Both the position numbers and the translations under genes were made by a program. A stretch of DNA of 64,000 nucleotides from a virus: the UHGV virus genome UHGV-0287696. One strand, 5' to 3'. Below the pieces are notes generated by a model. It worked only from the letters and a program-made list of their open reading frames with translations, had not been told where the DNA came from and ran no database searches. This document shows positions 25,971 through 46,949 of this stretch, in pieces. Position 1 is the first letter of the stretch; each line of letters starts with the position of its first letter.

Positions 25971-25976
25971 CACCTA

Positions 25977-26014
25977 CCCTACTCCTGACTAGGAGTAGGG
26001 TATTTTCATTTTTT
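25977..26014 (+). terminator. intrinsic terminator (CCCTACTCC stem family)
   Basis: CCCTACTCCT-GACT-AGGAGTAGGG followed by TATTTTCATTTTTT. Confidence 0.6.
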
Positions 26015-27025: not shown

Positions 27026-27571
27026 ATGAAACAAATACAGTTAACTGATCACGTTAATGCGTTTAAACACTTTCTGGATAACGCGGGTATAAAACCTGGC
27101 GAACAGACAGACGCATGGACTGCACGTGTTTATGGAAGTATTGGCAAAGTCTGTGAATCCACGACAACACACGATGGGTTGTTTGTTGCTAAAGCAGTAG
27201 GTATTGCCTTGTGGGATCTTGCTGCCTTGGTTTACGTGATGAATAACGGGGATTTACGTCCCCTTGAAAAATCGTTACACAGACTACTAGCCATTAAGAA
27301 ATGGAAAAACGAACATCCTGAGACAATCGCGGTGACGTTGATGCCGGAAGCGGTACTTGCTATCAAAGCGGTACGCAGTTGTACCGCACGCGCACAAATG
27401 GAGCGTCGACTACACCTCACGACGCTCTTTTATCAGTTGGCTAGAATTGTAAAGATGAACGGCCTAATCTTCGACCGGGTTCTACAAAACGGACGTATAA
27501 GTTGGACAGAAGAACTAAGCAGTTCTCCGTTCTATACAAAACTAAAGCTTAAAGACATTTTGAAGGATTAA
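27026..27571 (+). CDS. hypothetical protein
   Basis: ORF in a coupled gene series. Confidence 0.4.
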   Translation: MKQIQLTDHVNAFKHFLDNAGIKPGEQTDAWTARVYGSIGKVCESTTTHDGLFVAKAVGIALWDLAALVYVMNNGDLRPLEKSLHRLLAIKKWKNEHPETIAVTLMPEAVLAIKAVRSCTARAQMERRLHLTTLFYQLARIVKMNGLIFDRVLQNGRISWTEELSSSPFYTKLKLKDILKD

Positions 27572-27572
27572 C

Positions 27573-27881
27573 ATGGAAAACTATTCGGGTTGGGCAATTT
27601 CGCAGTGCATTGGTTATTCTTTACGTTCTTTAGTGCGTACACTTTATAACAAAAACTCAGGCGAAGCTATTACACCGCAGTTACTGGGCAAATTGGAAGT
27701 CGAAGTTAACCACAAATTAAAGCAGTTACTCGAGAGCCACGTAAGAACAATGCGTTGGGAGTTCTTGCTACGTGGTAAGAAGCCAACAATTACCGTTGTA
27801 GCAGAAGGCAGTGAAATCGTACTGCAATCCAACGCAGACCTATTTGAAATTTTAACTGAACTCGAAAAGGACAAAATCTGA
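27573..27881 (+). CDS. hypothetical protein
   Basis: Starts 2 nt after the upstream stop. Confidence 0.35.
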   Translation: MENYSGWAISQCIGYSLRSLVRTLYNKNSGEAITPQLLGKLEVEVNHKLKQLLESHVRTMRWEFLLRGKKPTITVVAEGSEIVLQSNADLFEILTELEKDKI

Positions 27882-28201
27882 TGGTTACGAACGACAATAT
27901 CAAGAAAAAGATTGACGAAATTATAAGCGTCAGTTTAGATAGAATCGAATTAATTCCCGAAACTAAGGAGATCAAATATTACGTTCCTGCGGACGAACTA
28001 TTTCCAGGTCTTCTTAGAATCTCACCAAAAAAGGTTGAAGAGGCTAAACGACAATTCGAAGTTCGTGGCCTTAAGGTTGACATTGTTAACAAAAAACATT
28101 TCCATGTAACGTATAGCCAGGAAAACATTATATTTAGTCCTGAACAAGCGCAACGTAATTTAGATATTTTAACGAAACGAATGGGGAATAATAACAAATG
28201 A
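27881..28201 (+). CDS. hypothetical protein
   Basis: TGATG overlap with the upstream gene. Confidence 0.35.
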
Positions 28202-29232
28202 AACAGTATTTAGCGCTAATGCAAGACATTCTGGATAACGGTGTTGTCAAGAAAGACCGCACAGGTGTAGGGACACTATCTGTATTTGGTCGTCAACTAC
28301 GTTTTGATCTGAAAGAAGGTTTCCCATTAGTTACTACGAAGAAGGTTCACCTGAAAAGTATCATTCATGAACTGTTGTGGTTCTTAAACGGTGACACTAA
28401 CGTGAAGTACCTGCAAGAGAACGGGGTAAAAATTTGGAATGCATGGAGTGATGAAGAGGGGAACTTAGGGCCAGTTTATGGTAAACAATGGCGCGAATGG
28501 CGCGACTGTAAAGTTGTGGAGTGTCATGACGTAAGACGTACACAACAACTAATGCAACGGGGTTACAAGTATATTGGGAATATGAAGGAAGATGGTACGA
28601 CGTATTTGGTTTATGAAAAAGCACATGACCAGATCAGCAAAGTTATCCGACAACTTCGTGAAGACCCTGACTCCCGCCGTATTATCGTTAGCGCCTGGAA
28701 TGTAAGTGACCTGGACGATATGGCACTTAATCCATGTCACGACTACTTCCAGTTCTACACAACGGAAATGACACTGCTTGAGCGACTGGATTGGTACGAA
28801 GCAAATGAACCGGAAAAATTTGCGAACGCGCCACTTATTAATCACGAAGATATTGATGATGAAGAACGACTTCATGAAACTTTAGATCGTGAAGGTATCC
28901 CTCGTCGTAAGCTTTCATGTTTTTACATGATGCGGAGCAACGATGTCGCATTAGGAAAACCGTTCAACATCGCGTCATACGCTCTGCTAACTCATGTGGT
29001 TGCCCAACAAGTGAATATGGTTCCCGATGAGTTAGTTTATAGTGGGGTCGATGTGCATTTATATCTGAACCACCTCGATCAAATAAAACTCCAGTTGACA
29101 CGTGAGCCGTACCCGTTACCTAAATTGGTTATTAAACGTAAACCCGAATCTATCTTCGACTACAAATACGAGGACTTTGAAGTAGTCGGTTACCAATCTC
29201 ACCCACACATCGCCATGCCTGTTGCGGTGTAA
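28198..29232 (+). CDS. thyA: thymidylate synthase (ThyA family) with two insertions
   Basis: Near-identical blocks to E. coli ThyA as recalled: [65 protein letters not shown], active-site [27 protein letters not shown]. Confidence 0.85.
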
Positions 29233-29708: not shown

Positions 29709-29729
29709 TTAATGATGAGGGAATTCTTT

Positions 29730-29879
29730 ATGACGAATGATGTCATTAAAGTTACTATAAAGTATATCAATCTGAATAAGAGAATCCGTTGCAAAGTAAA
29801 TCGTAAAACTATCGCTAGTCGCTGGCGTAAAGGACCACACAAGGGTCGTAAACGCTTTCTGGCTTTTGGGGATGTCTGA
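29730..29879 (+). CDS. small basic protein (49 aa)
   Basis: ATG to TGA with TGATG coupling to the next ORF; lysine/arginine-rich. Confidence 0.25.
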   Translation: MTNDVIKVTIKYINLNKRIRCKVNRKTIASRWRKGPHKGRKRFLAFGDV

Positions 29880-30103
29880 TGAAAAAACCACGATTTCACA
29901 GCCTGAGATTCTTTACAGGTGCTCTATATTTTATTGGCTACAACCGTGTACGTAAGGGTCCTGGTAAATCGAAGATGCGCATCGTGCGATATAAAGAGAC
30001 GCCGCCAGGTCTAGCACCGATGGCGAAACTTCTGTCGCCGTTCGCTAACCTTAATATCAAAACTGTTAACCCCTTTGTAAGAAATCTGGAAATTAAAAAA
30101 TGA
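29879..30103 (+). CDS. small basic protein (74 aa)
   Basis: ORF coupled on both sides. Confidence 0.3.
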   Translation: MKKPRFHSLRFFTGALYFIGYNRVRKGPGKSKMRIVRYKETPPGLAPMAKLLSPFANLNIKTVNPFVRNLEIKK

Positions 30104-30243
30104 CTGAAGAAGTTAAAGTAGAAACCGTTAAAGAAACTGATGAATTTGCAATCCCTGGGTTAGACCCGGAAGCGACCGTAGAGAAGGGTGCTGACCCAAC
30201 TACGGAAGACGATAACTGCTCAGGCGGGGCTTGCAAAATTTAA
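30100..30243 (+). CDS. small acidic peptide (47 aa) ending CSGGACKI
   Basis: ATGA overlap with the upstream ORF; followed by a hairpin terminator. Confidence 0.25.
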   Translation: MTEEVKVETVKETDEFAIPGLDPEATVEKGADPTTEDDNCSGGACKI

Positions 30244-30251
30244 CAGTTCCT

Positions 30252-30290
30252 GGGGTGCTTATGTAGCACCCCTAATCCTTATTCTTTTTG
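30252..30290 (+). terminator. intrinsic terminator
   Basis: GGGGTGCT-TATGT-AGCACCCC followed by a T-rich tract. Confidence 0.5.
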
Positions 30291-30312
30291 TTTAAACTAA
30301 TGGAGTTTTAAA

Positions 30313-31143
30313 ATGGGCGAACGTTTTGACATCAACACTATTTACAACATCGTAGTTAATCCTGGTCAACACCTGGAAGAAGTTAACGCACAACTGCGCG
30401 CTCTGAATGAGAATGCAGTACAGTTCGATGCTATTTACACAATTGGTGTAAACCCTGGTACCAACCGTATTCGTGTAGAAGGTAAACGCCACACCGGTAA
30501 TCAAGAACTGGACATCGAAACAATTGTAGCGCCTATTAAGCTTACCGATGCTGTTTACAACGGCACGGTAATGCATACAGAATCTGTTCCGGTCTACTCT
30601 ATTGAAAACTGTGTAGAACGTGTTAAAGGTTGGTCTAAAGAACGTGGTATTCTCGACAACGGTAAACTGGAAACTCAAATCACAAAGTTCTATGAAGAAT
30701 TTGGTGAGATTGCAACAGGTATCAGCAAAAACAAACCTGAACTGATCATGGACGGCATCGGCGATGCGTTGGTGGTTCTGGTAAACATCCTGGAACTGGA
30801 TAAGGACAGAGTGACTGGCGGAATGACAACCGCTGAAGTCATCGAACGCGGTTTACAATTGCAGGTAGATGATGTCGCTGGCGTTGAAGAACGTTTAAAC
30901 GATACCAAATATCCACACCAGTTGTATTTAGAGGCTACCGAAATCTTCGCTACTGCGTTCTTACGTACTGAACTGGGTACTGTTACGTTAGGTTGGGCTT
31001 TACATCGTCTTGCGCGACTCGCTCTCTATTATCGTCTTAACATTCGCCATTGTTTCTCTTTGGCCTGGCACGAAATCAAAGACCGTAAAGGTTATCTGAA
31101 CGCCGACGGTATTTTTGTAAAAGAAGCAGATCTGGCGAAATAA
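30313..31143 (+). CDS. protein with C-terminal MazG-like nucleotide pyrophosphohydrolase domain
   Basis: EE..E-type helix FYEEFGEIA and DGIGDALVVLVNILEL resemble the MazG metal-binding helices. Confidence 0.4.
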   Translation: MGERFDINTIYNIVVNPGQHLEEVNAQLRALNENAVQFDAIYTIGVNPGTNRIRVEGKRHTGNQELDIETIVAPIKLTDAVYNGTVMHTESVPVYSIENCVERVKGWSKERGILDNGKLETQITKFYEEFGEIATGISKNKPELIMDGIGDALVVLVNILELDKDRVTGGMTTAEVIERGLQLQVDDVAGVEERLNDTKYPHQLYLEATEIFATAFLRTELGTVTLGWALHRLARLALYYRLNIRHCFSLAWHEIKDRKGYLNADGIFVKEADLAK

Positions 31144-31151
31144 ATAAAAGT

Positions 31152-31200
31152 ACCTACCTCCTTTCGGAGGTAGGTAGACTTTCTTATTTTTTTTTCTTTT
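31152..31200. terminator. bidirectional terminator (ACCTACCTCC stem family)
   Basis: ACCTACCTCC-TTTC-GGAGGTAGGT with a long T tract; between convergent genes. Confidence 0.6.
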
Positions 31201-33999: not shown

Positions 34000-36900
34000 T
34001 TACGCTGATTTACGACTAACGTCGAGTTTCGGCGCGGGTTGAGTTATTGACACGTTACGTGACGCCGAACCCGGAGCGGTTGACGCCGGGTTAGCCGGAC
34101 CGTTTTGCATAGCCTGTGGCCGCTGACGAAGAATTGTTACAATCTCTTTCAGATAGCCTGCAGACTCTTTTGCAACCGCCAGCTGTTGTACACTGATCGG
34201 ATCACCACTGTTCACTGTAGAAGCGGTCTGAGCATCGGAAGTTACCGTTGGTGCAGGACGGGCCGATTTCTCCATCTGCTGTCTAGCACCTTCTTTTACT
34301 TTGGCAACCTCTTCTTCGGCCAGGCCATCAGCACGTGCATTTTGACCCACCGTCTCTACAACAACTGACGCATCGCTCGGCGTGACATCGCCACCAGGAC
34401 TCGGCACAGCCGGACCACCACCCGTTGCAGCTTTAATATCTTCAGCACCCATCGCGCCTTTGTCTGCTAAAGCGGAGTCACGATTCGCTTCGTTCGCGGC
34501 TGGCAGGTTATCTGCCGGGCCTGTGATAGACGGATCGTTAGCAGCGCCTGCAGCGATAGCCGGGGAAGACGGCATTGGCGTTACACCTGTCGTCAAGTCT
34601 TTCAGCGATGCCTGGTTAGCCGCGATCGCGTTTGTTCCTACAGCACCAATCTTACCACCCATGATGTTGAGCACTTCATCCAAACTACGCAATTTTCCAT
34701 TCTTGTAGAAAATTGTGCTGTTTGCCGCGATTTGATCGGCCGACGCACCACGCGACGATGGGCCGTTCGGATCACGCTTCCATTCTTGCAGGAATTTCTT
34801 ACCGCCACCTTGTCCTAAGAAGTGGTAGAGGTAAACAGCTGCACCTGGAGGATCGATACCACCTAAATCCTTTCTGGCTTTCTCGATATTATCACGAATA
34901 TGACGGACGCCAAGCAGAGCATTCGCCCACGGGTCATACTGGTTGGTTTGCGGGATACCGTAACGTCTCGCGTAAGCTTTCATCTGCGCACCCCAGGTAT
35001 CGTTGATGAACTGGAACAAGCCAGCCGCAGAACTTCCTTTAGCTTTGATACCGTATCTAAGCCCAGATTCTGCTTGTGCCATTCCCAGTGCTAACGCTGG
35101 AGGAACACCCATCATCTTCGCTACGTCTGTAATCAGTGCTGCAACCGCATTCAAGTTAGGCTTCAATCCGTCACCCAACGTTGAAATTGGATACTTAGCC
35201 GCTAACGTTTTATAGTCACCGTCTTGCATATCGCCAAGTTTCACGCCGAAGTTACCGGTAGTAAATGCAGCGTAATTCTTAGCTCCCATCTGACCGTAAG
35301 CACCGGCCAAATCGTTTGGTGTGCCGTAATTCCCACCGTCGTTCGCTGCCGGTTGCAATAGGTCACGATAAGAGGAGGAGGTGTTCATCTGTGGTCGAGA
35401 CGGTTGCTCCTTCTCGTCATCGGTCAAGAACATCTGGGTCGCACGATCTTTTCGCTGCCAGTTCACACGGAAACCCGCAGAAGGCGTAGCACGCAGCGTT
35501 TTACGTACTGCCAAGTCAGCTTCCTTAGACAGTTCTTTCAGGTTCTCTAACTCTGTTGCAACTGAACCGGCGTCGGTGTTAGCGTCTCCCCCTAACGGGT
35601 TAAACGGTACCTCCCACACTGACTGACGAATACCCCCTTTCAGGTTGTATGCACCACGCATCATCAGTGCGATTTCATACAAGAACCCACCCGTAACGCG
35701 TAGGTCCATCGGATCGGCGGCAGGAACATAACGTTTTACCCCAACGATGTACGTCATGAAGACAGGTAAGAAGCGGTTATAGAACCAGTTCTTGTACCGA
35801 TCTTCTTTTGGCCCACCAATGGCGTCAGGCGCAATCACCGCAATCGCACGTTTCCAGTCGCCTTTATACGTGCAGCTTTTCACATCGGTGTCTTGCAACA
35901 CTTGACGTTCCAAGAGCGTATAGAGGTTACGGGTTGTTTGAGTAATGCTCACCGCACCATAAGCTTTCAACCTTACGGACTCCAAATCACGGAGATCGGT
36001 TTCTTTAGGTAAGCTTCTCCAGTCGACTTGAACCTGAACTTGTTCGGTGCCGTCTTCCCAACCTTCGACTTTCGCAACTTCTTTGTTGCGTTCCGCATCC
36101 GCTTGAGCCAACGCTTGGGTCGATTCCGCCACAGAAGCAACTTTGTGTCCTTCGGCCACACCGCCTGTAGCATTTACATCCTTACGTTTTTCATCACGAC
36201 GCATGTTAATCGAACGAAGCACGCGTTCTTGCGCTTCAACGACTTCTTCGCCTGACAAAAACTCGGCCGGGGTAAACGTTACGAAATCCCACGCTTTAGA
36301 GAACCAACCTTGGTTAACCTTGCGGGGATCTTCTAATGCACGGAATGCAGGCGCATCTTTCGACATCTTCATTTTGTTGAAGATATTCAACATGTCTGCC
36401 TTTGACACTTTCGCAGGATTACCGACATCTGCTAACGCGATATCATTATCCATGGATTTCAGTGCCGTAATCCAACGTAAATAGATCGGCACAAAACGTT
36501 GTAGCATAAACGCACTAAACGCCAGCATTTCGCCTTTGTCTTCTACGTTAGTACCAAACCCTTCGGCCAGTTTCTTCACGTCGTCACCGGACAAACCACG
36601 CAACTGTGCTTGGCCATTCTCTGTATAAGAGATATACGGTTTCAAGTTGTCTTCTAAATAACGTGCTTTTGCGCCATCATCGGAAGACCATTCGTCATGA
36701 TCTCTAAATCCGTACTGTGCCAATCGCATGTTATCCAGATACTGAGCATTTACACGGGTTGCAGTTTTATACGCAAACCAAGACACCGCAGCGCCCGCAG
36801 CGACCAAACCGATAATCGGCCAGCCAACCGCAGTTACCACTGCAGATGCTGCCGTCGCGACAGCACTCACCGCAGGGACAGCCAAACGGGTTACGGCAAA

Positions 36901-39900
36901 TTTACCAACGTTCCACAACGCTTTACCTGCAAACCCAACCGGCTTAAAGATTCCCCATTTTGCAACTTTACCTAAGATTGAACCCACTGTGCCCAAAATA
37001 CTCACAATCGGCCCTACCAACGGCAGTCCTTTAAGGAAATCCATTACCCCACGTTTACCGCCTTTCTTCTCAGCCTCTTTCTTAGCCTTTTCCTCTTCCT
37101 TAGAACGACGACGGCGTCGGAAGAACTGGAAGTAATCGCGTTTTTCATCACTGGCAGGTGGCTTGTTACGTTGACCGAACTTACTGAACATGGTTCTTAA
37201 CAAACCATCCGAAGCACCTGCTTTTTCCGCAGAATCACGCATGGTATTAAACCACGACATTTCCTGAAGATTAACCATTCGGTTCAGGCGTTCCAGTAAA
37301 GCCGACCCAACGCTACGGGCTTTCTGTTTCCCTTTATTAATCACACGTCCAGCGCTATCCGTTACGGTGTCTAAGTCTTCTTTTGCCGCATCGATGATAC
37401 GTGTTTTAGACACCTTGCCTCTTGCGTAGATGTGTTGACGATAAAACTCAGCAACGTCGTCATCGCGTCCTGCTAAACGACTCTCCATTCGATAACGTGT
37501 TCCAATGTCGTAACGCGGATCACGGAAGGTATCGACCATATCGCTTGCACGACCACGGAAACGGTCAAACCAATCACGTGCTGCACCACCCCAACGAGAA
37601 AGACGGCCACCTACCGCACTGCGGTAACGGGACATTCTGTCACGCATCCGACCACGCCAATCCCGGAACCCTTGAAAATGTTCACGGAACCCTTCGCGTA
37701 TGTCCTTAGCACGTTGGAATAATCCTTTAACTGAACTGGCCCCCGTATTCCGCTCCATCTGTTCTGTCCAGGTGTCATCTTCAGGTTCACCTGGCAATCT
37801 CCGGTTAAGGAGTTTGTAGATACGGATTAAGATGTGGTTAGTTTTACGGCCATTCGACCACGAGAACACACTAAACCCACCACCAGAACCCCCTTCCTTA
37901 CGGTTCTGCCACCAACGTGTCAACGGATTATCAGAAGCCAACTCTTTGAGCTTCTCAAACCCACGTTTTGCATTGTTCCACAGACGAGCTGGCATTCCCG
38001 TTACGCGGGAAATCATGCTTTGTAAACGGGTTTTCTCTGCACCCTCTGGAACCTCATTTAACCACTCGCGTGCTTTCTCGAACAACGAAGCCGCTTTAGG
38101 CGAAATGAAACCCAGAAGTTTCTTCGGTAAGGTCACAGCTTTGTTTACCGCCGTTCCTGCCTTCCCAGAAATGTACTGGAAAAGCGCTTGAACTTTACCG
38201 CCTTTGTAGAAGCGTAGTTTACCTGCGGCAGCCAAATCAGCAGCCGCTAAGATTAAATTACCCGCTTCGTCGACGATGTCACGTCCCAGTTTAATATCGT
38301 CGAGAGTTTTAAGTTGAATCAGCTTCTCAGTTTTCGGGTCAGCCTGGTAATAATCCCCAGCTTCTAAACGACTTCCTTGTAATACGACGTTACCACGTTC
38401 ATCGTAGATGTCGCGAACGCCTAAAACGCCTTTACCGAAAGCTACGGCAGAATTCCAACCAGTCGATAATGTACCAGTTACTAACCCTTTCAGTCGGCTA
38501 AATACGCCAGGACCTTCGGAGGAACCGCCTGAGAATTTCCCACGAATAAAACCACCTAATGCTTGTAGGCGATCTTTCCCACGTAGGAACAGATTCTTAC
38601 CAAACCGTCCTACACCAGAACCGGTATCCCAAAGCACCCCAGCCCAGCGACGTAGCAAACCTGTCTCGCCTAGTACAATACGTTTGCGCTTACGACGACG
38701 TTTACGGCCCGATTCACTCGAACTTTCAGGTTCGTCGCCGTCATCACGACTACCGCCTAAACTGGCTAGAAGAATACCTTCCTCATCCATGTTCTTAACG
38801 TGTTTGAGGATGTCTTGCACGATGCTAGATTCAGGCTGTTTACGTACCGCATCAATCAAACGATCGAACTGTTGTTCCAGCCCGGCGTTCGTATCTGGAC
38901 GGCTGCTTAAGAGCTCAACAAAGTTGGTAGATTTCTCTCCATAAAGTACCGCAGCGAGTTGACGGGCGCTTAAACCACGACCGCGACCACCCTTTCCACC
39001 ACCACGTACGTTGGACAGTTCTTTGTCTTCAAAGCTCGGCTCTGCACCTGCCCCCATCCGACGCAAGTAATCACCCAACGCAGAACCGTTTTGCAGCTTA
39101 CGTTGAATCTCTTGCTCACGGGTTAACGAACGGCCAGAGCGGGTCTTACCCATCGACAGGTCGTTAAATAGCGTATAGGGATCGTTAATGTCCTTATCGA
39201 CTTCGAAAATGTCGTTCTTCGCATCGTATTTAAAAATACCGGAATCGCGAAGTGCGTTCTCGCCGTAAATCACAGACGCAGCGTCAACCGTGTCTTGACG
39301 TGCACGAATCGTTGACTGGATAGCGGCGATTTTGTTTGAAATAGCATTACTCAGTTCATGGTGTCCACCAACCAGTTCCGCAGAACGGGCTTCTAAAACA
39401 CCCTGAATCGCTTCCACAGCGTTTGCGTTCATGTAACGATACATGTGCATCGGGTCTTTCAATAAAGACCCTACATCGAACGCTTTCCCTTCTGAGGCAC
39501 GAGACTCGATGTAGTCCGCTAACGCTTGACGTGTTTTCCTATCGAGCGTTTTATCTTTATCGATAAAGTCGACAGTGTCGTTGATGTACGTCTGTAAACG
39601 TTTACGCTGATCGTCATTAGCAACGGCCTTACGTACACGATTACCAATGACTTTGCGATCCACCATACCACGCGTGGTCAGGTCATAAACCTGATCGTGG
39701 TGTTCGCCATACCCACGACGAATAGATTTGTTAATCTCGGACAGTAACGTCGGAATAACTTCGGTGATACTAAGGTAAGCTTTACGATCGAATTTCGCCG
39801 CGGCAGAAAGAGATTCCGCAGAGCGATCATCTAATGCTAAGGTTTCGCGACGTAGCGGGTTAACTAGCCCCAAATCGTGCATTAGTCGAAACAGATCAGC

Positions 39901-41124
39901 TAACGGACCGCTTGTTTCTCCCGCTATTGCCGAGTTAGAAATAGACGACAAATTTCCAAAGCCATACTTCGCCAACTGTAGGCGTTTCATGACTTCTGGG
40001 TTTTTCTCTAACTCGCCACGTGTCCAGTTCTGAAGACGTTCGATCTGGGGTTGTAAGAGACGTTTTGCTAACCAACCACCTGCAAAACCTGCCGCTTTAT
40101 TACGCGAGTTTGTGTTACGACGGTCAGGAGACAACGATGAGCTGTCCGACATGTCAAAGTCATCTTCCTGAGCCATCCCTAGAACTTGTTCTAGAATCCC
40201 ACGGCCATCACTAAAGATGTTCGAGATTTTCTTCTTCGCGTTTTCGCGAATCTGACCAATGAAATTGTCTGCGTAGTGTAAGGGGTTCATCCACTCCGCA
40301 GCTTTACGTTTTACATTAGCCCAACGAATTTCAGAAAACTCTTCCTTCGCGTAGTCCGGTAGTGCTGTGTTCTTAACGATGGCTTCTAATGCCGGGGTGT
40401 TGCGTGCAAACTCGTCTTGTTTGAGTTTCGCAATATCCTGCAAAGCAAACAATGTCCGATATTGCAGCTCTAACTGCTTACGCTGAACATTTAACAACAC
40501 ACCACGACTTAAGCTAGTCGTTAAGTTGACGTCTTTCGCAATACCGATTACGGTCTGGAACAGTGCGTCGGACTTCATGTCCTTAATCGTGTCGCGCAAG
40601 CGGTCTTCAACCATCCCCTCTTGCGCCTCACGTTGCTGGTCCGCTGTTTGCGGTGCACCTGAGAACACGCTGTCCAGCTCACGATCCATCATCGCTTGTT
40701 TAGGATCGTAATTCCCATAGTCGATTTGATCGTTACGTGCCCACTTGTCGATTTTCCGTGTTACGGATTCCGGTAAATACCGTTTCAGTGTTGGGCCTAA
40801 CTGTCTCGCTTGCATCTTGACGACGCGAGACGTCTTTTCAATCTCGTCTTTCGTATGGGCCAGAATGTCTTGACCTGCAGCTTTAACGTTTTGATAGCCT
40901 TCGTAGGCTTCTGCCGCAGGTTTAGGCATCCCTTTTAAAATAACCTGATCACGTTTGTTTTCGGGCCAGATAGTCGACAACGCCGACTTACGGGCAGCAC
41001 GAAATGTGTCCATGACCGGGTTACGCGATTGGTCTTGTTGACGAGGGGGCTCATCAAAATCGTCCCAGTCGTCCATGTTATCAAGATCGATTTCATCGAA
41101 ATCATCTTTACCTTTTTTAGCCAT
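34000..41124 (-). CDS. giant virion-associated protein (2374 aa) with internal lytic transglycosylase domain
   Basis: Single uninterrupted ORF. Acidic N-terminus, hydrophobic segments mid-protein, SLT motifs (AQAESGLRYG, AAGLFQF, Y...) about 1950-2100 aa from the N-terminus, Ala/Gly/Pro-rich C-terminal tail. Confidence 0.7.
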   Translation of the reverse strand: MAKKGKDDFDEIDLDNMDDWDDFDEPPRQQDQSRNPVMDTFRAARKSALSTIWPENKRDQVILKGMPKPAAEAYEGYQNVKAAGQDILAHTKDEIEKTSRVVKMQARQLGPTLKRYLPESVTRKIDKWARNDQIDYGNYDPKQAMMDRELDSVFSGAPQTADQQREAQEGMVEDRLRDTIKDMKSDALFQTVIGIAKDVNLTTSLSRGVLLNVQRKQLELQYRTLFALQDIAKLKQDEFARNTPALEAIVKNTALPDYAKEEFSEIRWANVKRKAAEWMNPLHYADNFIGQIRENAKKKISNIFSDGRGILEQVLGMAQEDDFDMSDSSSLSPDRRNTNSRNKAAGFAGGWLAKRLLQPQIERLQNWTRGELEKNPEVMKRLQLAKYGFGNLSSISNSAIAGETSGPLADLFRLMHDLGLVNPLRRETLALDDRSAESLSAAAKFDRKAYLSITEVIPTLLSEINKSIRRGYGEHHDQVYDLTTRGMVDRKVIGNRVRKAVANDDQRKRLQTYINDTVDFIDKDKTLDRKTRQALADYIESRASEGKAFDVGSLLKDPMHMYRYMNANAVEAIQGVLEARSAELVGGHHELSNAISNKIAAIQSTIRARQDTVDAASVIYGENALRDSGIFKYDAKNDIFEVDKDINDPYTLFNDLSMGKTRSGRSLTREQEIQRKLQNGSALGDYLRRMGAGAEPSFEDKELSNVRGGGKGGRGRGLSARQLAAVLYGEKSTNFVELLSSRPDTNAGLEQQFDRLIDAVRKQPESSIVQDILKHVKNMDEEGILLASLGGSRDDGDEPESSSESGRKRRRKRKRIVLGETGLLRRWAGVLWDTGSGVGRFGKNLFLRGKDRLQALGGFIRGKFSGGSSEGPGVFSRLKGLVTGTLSTGWNSAVAFGKGVLGVRDIYDERGNVVLQGSRLEAGDYYQADPKTEKLIQLKTLDDIKLGRDIVDEAGNLILAAADLAAAGKLRFYKGGKVQALFQYISGKAGTAVNKAVTLPKKLLGFISPKAASLFEKAREWLNEVPEGAEKTRLQSMISRVTGMPARLWNNAKRGFEKLKELASDNPLTRWWQNRKEGGSGGGFSVFSWSNGRKTNHILIRIYKLLNRRLPGEPEDDTWTEQMERNTGASSVKGLFQRAKDIREGFREHFQGFRDWRGRMRDRMSRYRSAVGGRLSRWGGAARDWFDRFRGRASDMVDTFRDPRYDIGTRYRMESRLAGRDDDVAEFYRQHIYARGKVSKTRIIDAAKEDLDTVTDSAGRVINKGKQKARSVGSALLERLNRMVNLQEMSWFNTMRDSAEKAGASDGLLRTMFSKFGQRNKPPASDEKRDYFQFFRRRRRSKEEEKAKKEAEKKGGKRGVMDFLKGLPLVGPIVSILGTVGSILGKVAKWGIFKPVGFAGKALWNVGKFAVTRLAVPAVSAVATAASAVVTAVGWPIIGLVAAGAAVSWFAYKTATRVNAQYLDNMRLAQYGFRDHDEWSSDDGAKARYLEDNLKPYISYTENGQAQLRGLSGDDVKKLAEGFGTNVEDKGEMLAFSAFMLQRFVPIYLRWITALKSMDNDIALADVGNPAKVSKADMLNIFNKMKMSKDAPAFRALEDPRKVNQGWFSKAWDFVTFTPAEFLSGEEVVEAQERVLRSINMRRDEKRKDVNATGGVAEGHKVASVAESTQALAQADAERNKEVAKVEGWEDGTEQVQVQVDWRSLPKETDLRDLESVRLKAYGAVSITQTTRNLYTLLERQVLQDTDVKSCTYKGDWKRAIAVIAPDAIGGPKEDRYKNWFYNRFLPVFMTYIVGVKRYVPAADPMDLRVTGGFLYEIALMMRGAYNLKGGIRQSVWEVPFNPLGGDANTDAGSVATELENLKELSKEADLAVRKTLRATPSAGFRVNWQRKDRATQMFLTDDEKEQPSRPQMNTSSSYRDLLQPAANDGGNYGTPNDLAGAYGQMGAKNYAAFTTGNFGVKLGDMQDGDYKTLAAKYPISTLGDGLKPNLNAVAALITDVAKMMGVPPALALGMAQAESGLRYGIKAKGSSAAGLFQFINDTWGAQMKAYARRYGIPQTNQYDPWANALLGVRHIRDNIEKARKDLGGIDPPGAAVYLYHFLGQGGGKKFLQEWKRDPNGPSSRGASADQIAANSTIFYKNGKLRSLDEVLNIMGGKIGAVGTNAIAANQASLKDLTTGVTPMPSSPAIAAGAANDPSITGPADNLPAANEANRDSALADKGAMGAEDIKAATGGGPAVPSPGGDVTPSDASVVVETVGQNARADGLAEEEVAKVKEGARQQMEKSARPAPTVTSDAQTASTVNSGDPISVQQLAVAKESAGYLKEIVTILRQRPQAMQNGPANPASTAPGSASRNVSITQPAPKLDVSRKSA

Positions 41125-41153: not shown

Positions 41154-42773
41154 GTGAATAAACTTAATTGGGTTGACTTTTATCTGCTCAATGTAAACAA
41201 GTCTCTTGTGTCGCGATTACGACCCGTCACGACCACGGATACTTTCCAGGGGTTAACAAAAAACTTTCACCCCGAAGGTCTTTACTCTACAGAGATATTT
41301 GGACTCACGGGGAGTGAAGCGCGAGACTCTACTTTCTCTTATATCGATATTAAACTCGATATCATTTCGCCGACGGTGTGTTTGGCGTTATTCCAACTCA
41401 AACAACTCTACGAAGAAATTTGTTCTGGAAAACGCTACGCAACGTGGAGCGAAAAAGAAAAAGATTTCGAACCGGCCTTGCCGGGAGACCCAGGCGCAGA
41501 TACCGGTTTTAACTTCTTCCTCAGTCACTATAACGATTTAAAACCTAAGCGTAACGAGTCCCTACAACGTGACGAAACCGTGGATTTCTTTTTGAAATTC
41601 CGTCCCGTTAGTCTTAGTCGATACGTTCTCGTGTTACCCGCGGGTTTACGCGATTTAGTAATTCGACAAGATGGTAGAGAACAGGAAGAAGAAATCGGCG
41701 GGATGTATCGTCGGTTGGTATCACTCGCCAGGGCGATCCCTGACCGAGCAACCCGTGTTGAATTAACTAACCCCGTGCGCTGGAAACTGCAACAAACCTT
41801 CAACGATATCTGGATGTATTTCTTTAACATCCAAGACGGTAAAGGGGGTTTCCAACGTCGTAAAGTGACGTCTCGTAAATTAATGAACGGGACACGTAAC
41901 GTACTGTCCTCGTTCTCGACGGGGTCTAAGTGCATGGGTCGTGAAGACGCTATTCGTCCCACCGACACCAAAATTGGTTTATACCAGGGTTTAAAAGCAT
42001 TACTCCCCGTTGCGCAGTACCAGATACGTGAACGTTACCTCGGTAACATCCGTGCTGGTGACGGCAACCTTTACGGCGTAAACACCAAAACCCTTAAACG
42101 TGAATTCTTGGAAGTAGGTGGTCGTGTATACGACACCTTTACCACCGACGATGGGATTGAATCCTTAATCAACCGAATGGAAGCTCGCGAGCTTCGCCAT
42201 CAACCGATTATGTTGGACGACACCCACTACGTTGCGTTGGTTTACCAAGACACCAAACATTTTAAGGTGTTCTACGATATTGAAGAACTTCCTAAAACGT
42301 TTGACCGAAAATTCGTTCACGGTATGACGCTCGTCGAATTGCTTTATTTGTCGGGCTACGAACTTTGGAACGATTATTTCGGTTTCGTTACACGTTATCC
42401 CGTTACAGGCCGAGGCTCGACGTATTCATCGACCATAAGATTGGAGACCACCACATCATCTTTATACTTAAAAGAACTGGAAGATGACTGGGAAACTGAA
42501 AAACCCCGAGGGGCTATCAGCTACCCTGACCGGTCGGTTCCTACCTTCGTTGAGTCGATGGCACCACACCCTTCACGCTTAGGTGGCTTAGGGGGTGACT
42601 ACGACGGCGATACCGGGTCGTTTAACGCGCCTATGTCCCAGGAAGCACTCGAGGAAAACCGGAATTGGATACACTCGAAAAACTACTGGTTCGATTCTGA
42701 TGGGAACTTTAAAATCAATCCTATCAACAACGTGATTAAACGTGCAACGCAAGCGTTATTAAAGAACCCATAA
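41154..42773 (+). CDS. large hypothetical protein with DYDGD motif (possible RNA-polymerase-like catalytic loop)
   Basis: GTG start with AGGAG upstream, divergent from the giant gene; GGLGGDYDGDTGSFNAP lies near the C-terminus. Confidence 0.5.
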   Translation: MNKLNWVDFYLLNVNKSLVSRLRPVTTTDTFQGLTKNFHPEGLYSTEIFGLTGSEARDSTFSYIDIKLDIISPTVCLALFQLKQLYEEICSGKRYATWSEKEKDFEPALPGDPGADTGFNFFLSHYNDLKPKRNESLQRDETVDFFLKFRPVSLSRYVLVLPAGLRDLVIRQDGREQEEEIGGMYRRLVSLARAIPDRATRVELTNPVRWKLQQTFNDIWMYFFNIQDGKGGFQRRKVTSRKLMNGTRNVLSSFSTGSKCMGREDAIRPTDTKIGLYQGLKALLPVAQYQIRERYLGNIRAGDGNLYGVNTKTLKREFLEVGGRVYDTFTTDDGIESLINRMEARELRHQPIMLDDTHYVALVYQDTKHFKVFYDIEELPKTFDRKFVHGMTLVELLYLSGYELWNDYFGFVTRYPVTGRGSTYSSTIRLETTTSSLYLKELEDDWETEKPRGAISYPDRSVPTFVESMAPHPSRLGGLGGDYDGDTGSFNAPMSQEALEENRNWIHSKNYWFDSDGNFKINPINNVIKRATQALLKNP

Positions 42774-42782
42774 GGCTAAGCA

Positions 42783-45700
42783 ATGCTGCTCATTAAACAG
42801 TTTAACCAACGCTTCTCGGTGCGTAAAACTGACGAGTTTGGTAATCCGAGGATTATCCCGCTCGAGAAGCTACAGATACCACGTGGTTCTGTACTCCATG
42901 TCATTGATCTCGACCAGGTGGTATTAGCGCCACCTGCAACACTCGAGATTATTCAACCGTTAGAAAAACCTGCACAGGTTCGTCACCACTTTAAATTACC
43001 GGAAGACGGTATTAGCGGTCATCCGCGCAACAAACCTGTTCAGGGGCAAGAACGTGCTATCTTTGCTTACCACCGTGCAAACCGCCCGATGCGTCGTCTT
43101 ACCTCAGACGATCTGGTTCGCAAAGACTTAAAAGTTCTCCTGGTCGAGAACTACACACCAATGCTATCGCACTACTACTATCCTGACACCCAGTTAGCCT
43201 GGTACGATAGACTGCGTAACATCCAACTGTTGATGATTAACCAGTTCAAATACGACACGCAAGAATACATGCGTCAGAACTATTTCGTTATTGAACTGGG
43301 TTCGACTCTACCTTCGTTCCAGAAGTTTCAAACAACCTATAACGACCGCGTTAAGAGCAAGATTGAGAAGTTCCAGGACTTCAACTTGCTGTGGTTATTG
43401 GAGTTGTTTGCTTGGGCTTATGGAAAACAATCCGATTCCCTATTCTCGGGAATGGATTTAACTCAGCTGTCACGAATGAACTTTATCTTCACCCACAACA
43501 CGGGCTTTACGTCCATGAACATGGGTGTTGTAGAGAAAATGCGTAAGTCGTCCGGCGGTCGTTTAAGTGATGACCAAATGGCCAGGATGTTCTACCGTAC
43601 GCTGGTGCGTGTAATGACACAAGCACCGTCTAACGCGTACGAAGCTGAATTCCTAACGCCTGAAGGCGACGAGCGTGTTTTCCTTAAAGACGTCGAAGAA
43701 GAAACCGTTGATGTTGTCGACGATGACGATGTTGTTAATGACGCTGTGGTGGAATCCGATAACACCTTCGATGAAAAAGAAGACGTTGTTATTGAAGAAC
43801 CGAAGGAAGACGTCAAACCGACGACCATCGTCGTCGAGAAAGTCATTCCGCATGACGAGATTATTAAACAGGAAGCACAACGCTTAGCTGAAGCGGGCCG
43901 CTTAAGTTCTAAAGCATATCAGTTCCTGTCAGAATCGTCTAAACGTTTCGTTCAGCTACCTAACCCGTATAACCCGAAAGAAACCTACGGGGAAGCACTG
44001 ACTGTTCACGAGAAAGATATCGTCGTTAAAGCCGAGCCGAAAAAAGTTCAGCGGCTTGTTACCGATGAAGGGTGGGCAGAGAACGTCACCGACCAGATGG
44101 TGAAACAATACAACCAGACCATGATGACCAAAGACGTACTGGCGGCGGTCGCCAGTTCACAACGTTTGGGTCTGGCGGTTCACAACCACACGGTGGAAAA
44201 AGAAGTTTCTGTTACAGGAACTATCGAGCACCACACCTTACGTGTTCAGCCAGTCGGTGGTGAGCCAACAACCGTTCGCTTCTCTATCCCAGGCTTGACC
44301 GAGGACGGTACTTGGGTCGCTAATGGTGTCGAATACACCATGCGTCGCCAACGTGTGGACTTACCGATTCGTAAGGTTGCACCGGATACTGTCGCACTGA
44401 CTACCGCTTACGGTAAAAACTTTGTCCGTCGTAGTGATAAAGTCGCAAACGATTACGGCCGTTGGTTAACCAACGCGATTATCACACGCGCCGTTGACCC
44501 GACAAACACCGAAGTCACCGATGCACGTTTAGCAAATGTGTTCGATCCTACGCAACATCTGCCTCGTCAGTATACGGAGATTGCACGCCGTATTGCCAGC
44601 TTTAATGCGAACGGCTATATGTGGAACTTCGACTACAAAGAAGCCGTTAACTTCTTTAACGACGAGCAACTCAGAGACGCCGATGCTGCCAAACTTCTGC
44701 CAGTGGCGAAACGTCCGCGTAGCGAAACAATCCTGGCAATGGATGACAAATCCATGCTTTACGGTGTGAACGGAAACAAAGTTGAACCAGTGGGAACCAT
44801 CGCAGAGGTATTGGGCTTTAATAACCAGAAAGTGCCTCGCGAAATGACCGAGCTGTCTTTGATGGGTAAATCTTTGTCGCTTGGTTTTATCTTCTCGTTC
44901 TATCTTGGACTCCAGGGAATGTTGAAACATTTCGGTATCCAGTACGAGTTGGTTCCTACAGGACAGCGTGTTGATAAGAATGCCTACGACAGTATTATTC
45001 GACTACAAGACTGTAAACTTTTAGTTACTTGCGATAACGATCAGCAGAGGATGATTCTGCATGGTTTGGATCGCTATCTCAAACACCTGGTTGCTTATAC
45101 CGAATCAGAAGCAGACCGCGAAGACATTTACCTGAACTTATTACGTGAAGCAGATGGCCTAACGCCACGGTACATCAACGAGCTGAAACAGATGCGGTCC
45201 GCGTTTGTTGACGACATGCACGCACGTATCCTCAGGAAAATGGGTGAGCCGGAAACCTTTATTGGCTTGCTGGAACGTTCTAACGAACTGTTACAAACTG
45301 ACCACTCTTTACCAGAGATTAACGGCGATGAAATGATGTTCTTAGGAAATCAGAGGATTGCCTACCACATCTATACTGCGATGGTCAGAGCGATGCGTAA
45401 CTACAATAACGCACCGGGCAGTAACCGTAAGTTCGAACTGACACAAGACATGGTTTGGGGTGCAATTAACTCCGACCCGTCGGTACTTTTGGCACCAGGC
45501 GCTAACCCTATCCAGTCAATTAAAGAAAAAGACGTTATTACGATGGGGGGTACAGGTGGTCGTAATCGTAAAACGATGGTCTACCACACGCGTGAGTTCC
45601 AACCCAGTGATATCGGGATAGTCTCGGGTAATACCGTAGATAACGGCGACGTAGGGATTACTGCTTTCGTCACCAATAACCCACGTTTTGACACCGTTGA

Positions 45701-46949
45701 CGGTACCACGTTTAAGCGTGAAGAGAAAACCCCGAAACCAAGCGATACCCTTTCGTTTATTGACGGGTTAGTACCCGATACGTTAATGGACGATGCAAAA
45801 CGTCAAAACTTCGTTGGGATTCAGTTAGGTTCTGCCACCAGTTGTAATGGGGCAACCACAACCCCGTATCGTACTGAACAGGAGAAATTCGTCGCACACC
45901 GTACTTCGGTGAAACATGCACGCGTTATTGATAAAGCAGGTAAGATTACTGGTCTGTCGAAAGACCACATTGAAATTACGTACGAAGATGGAAGTAAAGA
46001 AGCCTTTCCTCTAGGGCGCTGGTTCGGCCCCCACGAAGGTACCTTCTATCCGCACACCTTGGTAACACGCTGGAAAGCCGGTGATAAGCTCCCGGCCGGA
46101 GCAGTGATTACGTACAACGAGCAACACTTTGAACCTGATATTTACGATCCTACTCAGGTTTCCTGGAAAAACGGGGTGCTGGCCACCGTTGCTTTATTAG
46201 AAGCTGAAGAAGTTATCGAAGACTCCAACGCAATTTCTGAACGGTTCGCGAAGAAAATGGTGGGGCAGGTAACAAAGCTGAAAGAAGTGACGATTAACAG
46301 CAACCAGATGCTTTTGGAAATCGTGAATGAGGGCGACCACGTAGACGTCGATACAATCCTATGCACGTTTACTGACGACTTGACGGGCGATATGAGTGCC
46401 TTTAGTCAGGAAGCAGCCGCAACGTTGCAAAGTTTAAGTTCGTACGCACCTCGTGCAGGGGTACGTGGTATCGTGGATAAAATCGAAGTGGTGTATCACG
46501 GTGAAACCGAAGACATGACGCCAAGTCTTGCTGAGCTGGTGCGTAAATACGACAGAATTCGTCGTAAAGCCGCACTGGCAGTCGGACGCGGTGATCCGGT
46601 TTCAGGCAGTGTAAACGGCGACTACCGTGTCGAAGGTGTACCCTTGGCCTTTAACTCACTTTGTGTTCGATTCTTTATTACACACGACGTTGAGATGGCC
46701 GCTGCGGATAAGATGGTTATTGCTAACCAGCTAAAAACCACCGTACAAGAAGTCATGTACGGCGACAACAAAACAGAGGATGGTGATGACCTGGACGTGT
46801 TGTTCGGTCGCGATTCCGTCGATGCGCGTATCGTAGGTTCAATCCAACGTATCGGTACCGCGAATGCTGTAGGTGAACAAGCCGGGATTCTCATCGGGCG
46901 TATACTCGATGGGGAGGCTGTGCCTGATTTACCCGCGACACTTAAATAA
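42783..46949 (+). CDS. large hypothetical protein (1388 aa)
   Basis: Long ORF in the same frame as the upstream ORF, separated from it by TAA-GGC-TAA; internal acidic run; function unknown. Confidence 0.5.
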   Translation: MLLIKQFNQRFSVRKTDEFGNPRIIPLEKLQIPRGSVLHVIDLDQVVLAPPATLEIIQPLEKPAQVRHHFKLPEDGISGHPRNKPVQGQERAIFAYHRANRPMRRLTSDDLVRKDLKVLLVENYTPMLSHYYYPDTQLAWYDRLRNIQLLMINQFKYDTQEYMRQNYFVIELGSTLPSFQKFQTTYNDRVKSKIEKFQDFNLLWLLELFAWAYGKQSDSLFSGMDLTQLSRMNFIFTHNTGFTSMNMGVVEKMRKSSGGRLSDDQMARMFYRTLVRVMTQAPSNAYEAEFLTPEGDERVFLKDVEEETVDVVDDDDVVNDAVVESDNTFDEKEDVVIEEPKEDVKPTTIVVEKVIPHDEIIKQEAQRLAEAGRLSSKAYQFLSESSKRFVQLPNPYNPKETYGEALTVHEKDIVVKAEPKKVQRLVTDEGWAENVTDQMVKQYNQTMMTKDVLAAVASSQRLGLAVHNHTVEKEVSVTGTIEHHTLRVQPVGGEPTTVRFSIPGLTEDGTWVANGVEYTMRRQRVDLPIRKVAPDTVALTTAYGKNFVRRSDKVANDYGRWLTNAIITRAVDPTNTEVTDARLANVFDPTQHLPRQYTEIARRIASFNANGYMWNFDYKEAVNFFNDEQLRDADAAKLLPVAKRPRSETILAMDDKSMLYGVNGNKVEPVGTIAEVLGFNNQKVPREMTELSLMGKSLSLGFIFSFYLGLQGMLKHFGIQYELVPTGQRVDKNAYDSIIRLQDCKLLVTCDNDQQRMILHGLDRYLKHLVAYTESEADREDIYLNLLREADGLTPRYINELKQMRSAFVDDMHARILRKMGEPETFIGLLERSNELLQTDHSLPEINGDEMMFLGNQRIAYHIYTAMVRAMRNYNNAPGSNRKFELTQDMVWGAINSDPSVLLAPGANPIQSIKEKDVITMGGTGGRNRKTMVYHTREFQPSDIGIVSGNTVDNGDVGITAFVTNNPRFDTVDGTTFKREEKTPKPSDTLSFIDGLVPDTLMDDAKRQNFVGIQLGSATSCNGATTTPYRTEQEKFVAHRTSVKHARVIDKAGKITGLSKDHIEITYEDGSKEAFPLGRWFGPHEGTFYPHTLVTRWKAGDKLPAGAVITYNEQHFEPDIYDPTQVSWKNGVLATVALLEAEEVIEDSNAISERFAKKMVGQVTKLKEVTINSNQMLLEIVNEGDHVDVDTILCTFTDDLTGDMSAFSQEAAATLQSLSSYAPRAGVRGIVDKIEVVYHGETEDMTPSLAELVRKYDRIRRKAALAVGRGDPVSGSVNGDYRVEGVPLAFNSLCVRFFITHDVEMAAADKMVIANQLKTTVQEVMYGDNKTEDGDDLDVLFGRDSVDARIVGSIQRIGTANAVGEQAGILIGRILDGEAVPDLPATLK

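Follow-up and report, generated by a model that had tools for sequence, protein, structure and literature searches.

The question raised by the thymidylate synthase (TS) gene at positions 28198–29232 of UHGV virus genome UHGV-0287696 is why its product has 344 amino acids, when E. coli ThyA has 264, and what the additional residues may contribute to an enzyme that is among the best understood and a drug target. We analysed the gene in the context of a 64,000-nucleotide stretch of the viral genome (hereafter, the window) and compared it with known TS sequences and structures.

The TS reading frame is open over its whole length, and its product is the sequence that the initial annotation had quoted. 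It lies in a plus-strand gene block with strong terminator-like hairpins at both ends:

25975–26002, plus strand: terminator-like hairpin (12 pairs and a T-run), marking the upstream end of the TS-containing block
27881–28201, plus strand: upstream 106-aa ORF, ending in a TGA that overlaps the ATG of TS
28198–29232, plus strand: thymidylate synthase gene, ThyA class (344 codons and a stop; PF00303, NCBIfam equivalogs, phrog_160)
31151–31176, no single strand: bidirectional terminator-like hairpin, the downstream edge of the block

The ATG of the TS gene and the TGA of the 106-aa ORF overlap in an ATGA (28198–28201), which suggests that the two genes may be translationally coupled. Further upstream, two plus-strand ORFs (27026–27571 and 27573–27881) jointly match phrog_10269 (299 aa, unknown function), which also has a weak match to the MazG-like protein encoded downstream of TS. 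The counterpart of this pair in phage SPN3US is a single 289-aa gene; in the window phage, that gene may have been split or frameshifted. Downstream, a gene for a MazG-like nucleotide pyrophosphohydrolase (30313–31143, plus strand) is the second after the TS gene, and the approximately 600 bp between it and the gene that follows TS (29709–30312) contain only short ORFs of 47–74 aa. No tRNA was found anywhere within the window.

The product matches PF00303 end to end (residues 2–344 on profile positions 1–266 of 266, E=5.9e-110, 367 bits with a cut-off of 24.3) and passes the cut-offs of the NCBIfam equivalogs NF002497 (391 vs 327), TIGR03284 (337 vs 108) and NF002499 (405.1 vs 405). Its matches in NCBIfam and PHROGs are to TS families only (phrog_160). 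The active-site Cys and the substrate-specifying Asn, which the initial annotation had listed as retained, are both in place: C180 and H181 of the P-C-H motif correspond to C146 and H147 of E. coli ThyA, with the Cys invariant across 147 homologs, and N257 in PFNIASY is the uracil-specifying Asn (E. coli N177), a position occupied by Asp in dCMP hydroxymethylases. Also kept are the phosphate-binding arginines R21, R246 (E. coli R166) and R160/R161 (R126/R127), S247 (S167), the folate-binding and hydride-transfer residues E58, W80, W83, Y94, D249 (D169), H287 (H207) and Y289 (Y209), and the closing C-terminus PVAV. Most of the catalytic residues checked are invariant in the alignment of these 147 diverse homologs. 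The sole one lost is E. coli Q165, which is replaced by Met245. This position is variable in the clade (Q 68%, M 19%; Ala in Goslar), and the SPN3US enzyme has the canonical Q together with the same inserts. Near the active site, the second shell differs from that of E. coli ThyA by A144N, A148D, C168N, F171A and L174K, and these substitutions and Met245 may conceivably alter kinetics or specificity. Judged by its sequence, the 344-aa protein is a full-length ThyA-type TS and almost certainly active; dUMP methylation, which had been put forward as plausible, gains support from a predicted active site that is intact.

The limits of the inserts were set by HMMER alignment to the 264-aa chains of E. 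coli ThyA (such as PDB 2TSC and 1TYS), which lack both inserts. The alignment resolves into three collinear blocks, separated by insert B and insert C:

28198–28503, plus strand: core block 1 (aa 1–102 = E. coli 1–102), with R21, K48, E58, W80, W83 and Y94
28504–28623, plus strand: insert B (aa 103–142), 40 aa replacing the 6-aa E. coli loop 103–108, net +34
28624–28764, plus strand: core block 2 (aa 143–189 = E. coli 109–155), with R160/R161, C180 (codon 28735–28737) and H181
28765–28905, plus strand: insert C (aa 190–236), 47 aa replacing 1, net +46, at the β-hairpin turn of E. coli 155–157
28906–29229, plus strand: core block 3 (aa 237–344 = E. coli 157–264), with R246, S247, D249, N257 (codon 28966–28968), H287, Y289 and PVAV

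The net gains at sites B and C thus explain the difference between 344 and 264 residues. A ThyA-type TS with two in-frame insertions, one after GKQWREW and one after FQFYT, had been described from the sequence alone; the ORF, the PF00303 match and the three-block alignment uphold that description, including the insert sizes and positions. The core had also been called nearly identical to the enterobacterial enzyme, which overstates the likeness: the two enzymes share the fold, both termini and the catalytic residues except Q165, and their core identity is 66–68% (71, 68 and 63% in blocks 1, 2 and 3), so that the cores are similar only. A sequencing artefact was rejected as the source of the inserts, because the best 120 homologs listed, which are 93–100% identical and come from independent assemblies, are every one exactly 344 aa long.

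An AlphaFold2 monomer model, built on the homolog alignment, has a mean pLDDT of 96.7 and a pTM of 0.94. In a Foldseek comparison with 1TYS (E=2e-42, TMt 0.97) it covers the E. coli enzyme over its whole length. The pLDDT of both inserts is above 90 nearly throughout, and in this model inserts B and C are folded surface modules. Insert B is predicted to form a β-α-β-β mini-domain (strands 101–108, 124–131 and 134–143, helix 112–120; pLDDT ~98), which would occupy the loop past the Q-W-R helix. Insert C is predicted to consist of helices 193–203, 205–210, 216–220 and 222–231, with lower confidence only at its tip (~211–220).

Insert B has a counterpart of known structure. It aligns without gaps over 71 residues (E=3.7e-8) with residues 107–177 of Burkholderia thailandensis ThyA (PDB 3V8H), an enzyme of the ~323-aa bacterial NF010393/PRK13821 type that carries the same module at equal length, and 3V8H gives the best structural coverage of our model among PDB entries (TMq 0.79). 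The likeness is limited to this module: 3V8H is ~32% identical to the window protein overall and has no large insert at site C, and, although the NF010393 alignment runs through insert B, the window protein scores 231.5 bits against that equivalog, below its cut-off of 576, and so is no member. The depositors of 3V8H mention only “large subdomain differences” (PMC3561365). The insert B module would then be an old optional part of the family that is also found in Burkholderia-type ThyA. In many metagenomic TS homologs (P0129, P0132, P0134, P0144, P0159, P0161, P0176, P0182, P0204, P0207, P0227, P0243 and others), in-frame insertions of 130–270 aa lie inside this module with the flanking strands kept (E. 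coli 99–109). Two of them have weak I-HmuI NUMOD-like matches, and by their sequences these large insertions look like nested DNA-binding or homing-endonuclease-like domains that have no intein signature.

For insert C, no sequence counterpart was found in the PDB. The long TS of the Chimalliviridae and related jumbo phages can be delimited as an informal group by an insert of ~35–65 aa at this hairpin, framed by the pattern T-x-E-[LM]-[ST]-x-x-E-R ... L-D-x-x-x-[VI]-P, which in the window protein reads TTEMTLLER ... LDREGIP, with conserved anchors at E195, R196, L229, D230, I234 and P235 and a tip of varying length. Its net charge is −10 in the window protein and is negative in 83% of 103 homologs. 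To our knowledge, no classical TS has an insertion at the hairpin of E. coli 155–157. An insert-C-only profile had no significant match in a database of 5.8 billion proteins, a null result that we attribute to the shortness of the profile.

Both inserts are under purifying selection as strong as that on the core. In a comparison with an 87%-identical relative, insert B has a dN/dS of 0.04 and insert C one of 0.03, while the core has 0.07, values that indicate selection on the inserts at the protein level. Among the best 120 relatives (93–100% identical), the fraction of variable sites in the inserts is similar to that in the core.

The window contains genes of a jumbo phage: split multisubunit RNA polymerase β genes, a tail sheath gene and virion genes. 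The adjacent genes for proteins of 539 and 1388 aa (41154–46949, plus strand) match phage RNA polymerase β-subunit families, and such a split β pair is the arrangement typical of phiKZ-like phages. The RNA polymerase genes are adjoined by a 2374-aa ORF (34000–41124, minus strand), a homolog of which, on the E. coli “plasmid” record described below, is annotated with a transglycosylase SLT domain. About half of a 24-kb segment aligns with SPN3US- and Asesino-like phages at 74–77% nucleotide identity, and the INPHARED collection holds no close relative of the window phage. Megablast of the TS gene against INPHARED gave no match, its relatives there being found at the protein level only. By relatedness of sequence, we assign the window phage to the Chimalliviridae as a ~222-kb SPN3US/Goslar-related jumbo phage of Enterobacteriaceae.

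The 87%-identical TS is already annotated as thyA in RefSeq, on a circular 221,873-bp “plasmid” record of E. coli strain 98232. The window is 83–87% identical to, and syntenic with, circular 222-kb “plasmids” of this kind, namely p98232-contig_4 from a clinical E. coli and one from Enterobacter ludwigii; the relative segment compared was NZ_CP173450.1 187250–198284. In addition, sequencing runs of Salmonella, Shigella and E. coli contain 220–225-kb contigs that encode more than 100 near-identical TS proteins. Such records suggest that a jumbo phage lineage persists with enterobacterial isolates, in a carrier state or by pseudolysogeny, and has been filed as a plasmid.

The two inserts are not peculiar to the window gene but are shared by many related giant phages. 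The TS enzymes of SPN3US (SPN3US_0229) and Goslar (Goslar_00141) have the same B+C architecture and ~64–65% overall identity, and full-length matches with both inserts were found in SPN3US-like phages, Goslar and Erwinia jumbo phages at 58–64% identity. The SPN3US proteome has a predicted TS, gp100, present in trace amounts in mutant particles (PMC5694885). The insert-bearing SPN3US ThyA is SPN3US_0229, and the two names may reflect either another numbering or a second TS-like gene. More widely, the Chimalliviridae enzymes of SPN3US, Goslar, Asesino, Ea35-70, PA7, 201phi2-1 and Psa21 are the same enzyme with a homologous insert C. The insert occurs in five genera of this family, Seoulvirus, Goslarvirus, Phikzvirus (PA7), Tepukevirus (Psa21) and Agricanvirus (Ea35-70), and was aligned in SPN3US, Goslar, pEa_SNUABM_29, Ea35-70, PA7 and Psa21; the predicted structure of the 201phi2-1 enzyme superposes on our model with a TMq of 0.92. 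A third insert of ~100 aa, at site A, is present in PA7, Psa21 and 201phi2-1 and absent from the window protein. The combinations are mosaic: B+C in the window phage, SPN3US and Goslar; A+C in Ea35-70 and pEa_SNUABM_29, which, unlike the window protein, lack B; and A+B+C in PA7 and Psa21. We know of no insert-C-bearing chimallivirus TS that has been characterised biochemically.

To count the inserts, we took the query and its best 150 representatives in a 50%-identity library of 1.8 billion proteins. At least 10 additional residues are present at site C in 118 of these 151 sequences, at site B in 108 and at site A in 55. That the inserts are common in ThyA homologs had been named beforehand as a result that would refute the initial interpretation, and by these counts it holds within the relevant clade. 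Insert C alone, used as a query, retrieved 43 phage records (SPN3US-like, Asesino-like and Ea35-70-like). The beginning of insert C was expressed as a DNA pattern, TTYCARTTYTAYACNNNNGARNNNNNNNNNNNNGARMG, and the window and IMG/VR were scanned with it. It has one match in the window (28747–28784) and matches 82 IMG/VR stretches; TS genes are carried by 80 of the 80 readable ones, and 38 of the 82 contigs have lengths of 185 kb or more. Ten insert-C representatives that were looked up all come from metagenome assemblies, on contigs of up to 128 kb, a provenance consistent with phage origin. In a sample spread over the 3,962 phage records that match TS, most TS genes have 266–316 codons, and only four rows, all of chimalliviruses, exceed 340. 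Insert C was found only in phage and in unassigned metagenomic TS.

Insertion into TS is not in itself exceptional. Small-domain insertions are tolerated in the L. casei and eukaryotic enzymes too: those of eukaryotes lie at hTS positions 117 and 148, the first of which coincides with site A, a site used by many homologs, and the second of which, eukaryote-specific like the first, corresponds to site B (PMC4274661). The L. casei and eukaryotic inserts are 8–50 aa long, are unrelated in sequence to those of the window protein, and none is at site C. The L. casei insert, too, presumably coincides with site A. Phage T4 td TS (286 aa), a phage enzyme of the ThyA class like the window protein but with 48% core identity, has its insert near site A and in its C-terminal part, and none at site C. 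The extra segments of T4 td have been proposed to make contacts in a dNTP-synthesising complex.

Where, then, did the gene and its inserts come from? Capture of a host thyA by the phage, followed by lineage-specific elaboration, had been the initial suggestion. The TS core is indeed closer to E. coli ThyA (68%) than to the phiKZ-like or T4 enzymes (46–53%), a single stretch of 56–80 nucleotides is 82–87% identical to E. coli thyA, and a neighbour-joining (NJ) distance tree of the core columns places E. coli ThyA within the SPN3US-like enzymes. The cores of enterobacterial jumbo-phage TS are 68–78% identical to E. coli ThyA and no more distant from it than from one another. The nesting in the tree, however, is unsupported and involves very short internal branches. 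Overall nucleotide identity to E. coli thyA is only 63%, identity at third positions is 32–40%, and dS is saturated to the point of not being computable; no recent capture is thus visible, and at the DNA level the two genes have no recent common ancestry. The inserts, moreover, are common to Pseudomonas and Erwinia phages: insert C is carried by phiKZ-like, Agricanvirus and Tepukevirus enzymes whose cores are only 43–54% identical to E. coli ThyA, and B is found in Burkholderia ThyA, so that the inserts predate the window phage lineage. Considering (i) the saturated dS, (ii) the presence of insert C in phages that infect different hosts, and (iii) that of insert B in Burkholderia, we regard recent capture with subsequent elaboration as ruled out as an account of the window gene, and a reading of that kind as quite improbable. 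An old γ-proteobacterial thyA origin, or old recombination between host and phage, is possible from the sequences compared. It is scarcely credible that the inserts are left over from mobile elements (mini-inteins, or read-through of an in-frame homing endonuclease or intron) and are neutral or removed from the mature protein. Intron homing classically targets TS genes (PMC11620839), and site B is a hot spot at which metagenomic homologs carry the 130–270-aa insertions described above, including the two with NUMOD-like matches. Inserts of 40 and 47 aa, however, are far below intein size (at least ~130 aa); they start with RDCK.. and TEMT.. and end with ..YEKA|H and ..IPRR|K, with neither an N-terminal Cys/Ser nor a C-terminal His-Asn followed by Cys/Ser/Thr, and the TS protein has no intein match in Pfam. 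Their dN/dS of 0.03–0.04, their modelled packed secondary structure, continuous with the core, and the presence of insert B in the mature, crystallised 3V8H protein also speak against this origin. Size, termini, selection and the 3V8H precedent rule out that the inserts are inteins.

A different doubt concerns the reaction itself. The gene could encode a synthase of modified pyrimidines, for example a dUMP hydroxymethylase or a dCMP-directed enzyme serving hypermodified DNA, in which the inserts or second-shell substitutions block hydride transfer. The replacement of Q165 by Met and the several substitutions around the Cys and the R-S-x-D strands are compatible with such a change, as is the MazG-like dNTP pyrophosphatase encoded two genes downstream, given that genes of this kind are sometimes tied to the exclusion of canonical nucleotides. 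MazG genes are also common in phages with ordinary DNA. Against this reading, residue 257 is Asn and not Asp, and Y94, E58, W80, W83, H181 and the closing C-terminus, which serve reductive methylation, are all kept. The core identity of 68% to E. coli ThyA and the TS equivalog cut-offs passed point the same way, and SPN3US keeps Q at the Q165 position with the same inserts. The T4-type hydroxymethylase is a distant structural model (Acj9 gp42, TMq 0.52, 14% identity), and a pyrimidine hydroxymethylase of the T4 gp42 type was rejected, with Asn257 present and only TS families matched. We therefore hold a modified-pyrimidine synthase to be very unlikely.

By far the most probable reading, in our judgement, is that the gene encodes a functional ThyA-class TS making dTMP for the jumbo phage, with two folded modules grafted onto its surface that take no part in the chemistry. 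The enzyme would convert dUMP and 5,10-methylene-tetrahydrofolate to dTMP and dihydrofolate, and the dTMP would be supplied to jumbo phage replication. Its catalytic core would be that of a conventional γ-proteobacterial-type ThyA, with the two modules set into surface loops. The inserts would leave the chemistry unchanged and would act as structural or protein–protein surfaces. Insert C would be an acidic helical stalk, both ends of which join the core at the turn of the hairpin whose strands run from the catalytic Cys to the R-S-x-D motif. Its conserved helix bases (E-R ... L-D ... V/I-P) and variable tip are what one would expect if a stalk displays a variable surface. TS is an obligate homodimer with shared active sites, and by its topology the hairpin of E. 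coli 155–157 would sit where the dimer-interface sheet ends on the side away from these sites. Insert C is probably located at this pole of the sheet, at a distance from catalysis. In a dimer, the two C modules could touch and extend the dimer contact, or insert C could dock a partner from the phage nucleotide-synthesis machinery. No conserved neighbour gene was found as a candidate partner, as the flanks of the TS gene differ among SPN3US, Goslar, PA7, Psa21 and Ea35-70.

The published record on jumbo-phage TS is sparse. A TS-GFP fusion of PhiPA3 is located outside the phage nucleus (PMC9067925), and knock-down of phiKZ gp235 gives only a weak phenotype (PMC12571901). Beyond annotations, this localisation and this phenotype, no description of inserts B or C in jumbo-phage TS was found in the literature, and our searches of the searchable literature found no activity, complementation or oligomer work on insert-bearing TS homologs.

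The window gene itself is of small import, as it encodes a recognisable TS whose 87%-identical copy already bears the name thyA in RefSeq. The element of wider interest is insert C alone, for which we found neither a solved structure nor a paper: a clade-wide, conserved and strongly selected helical module of giant-phage TS at a place where no studied TS has an insertion. It would be an inexpensive model of how viruses build on core metabolic enzymes, and could be used as a sequence marker for jumbo-phage contigs. More speculatively, and with the odds clearly against it, the insert might be a phage-restricted stalk through which the TS of nucleus-forming jumbo phages gains a second capability beyond catalysis, with the variable tip as its specificity determinant. 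If so, the enzyme could, for example, enter a higher-order or multi-enzyme dNTP-synthesising complex, be tethered near the phage nucleus so that dTMP or dTTP is channelled, or evade a host factor directed against canonical ThyA.
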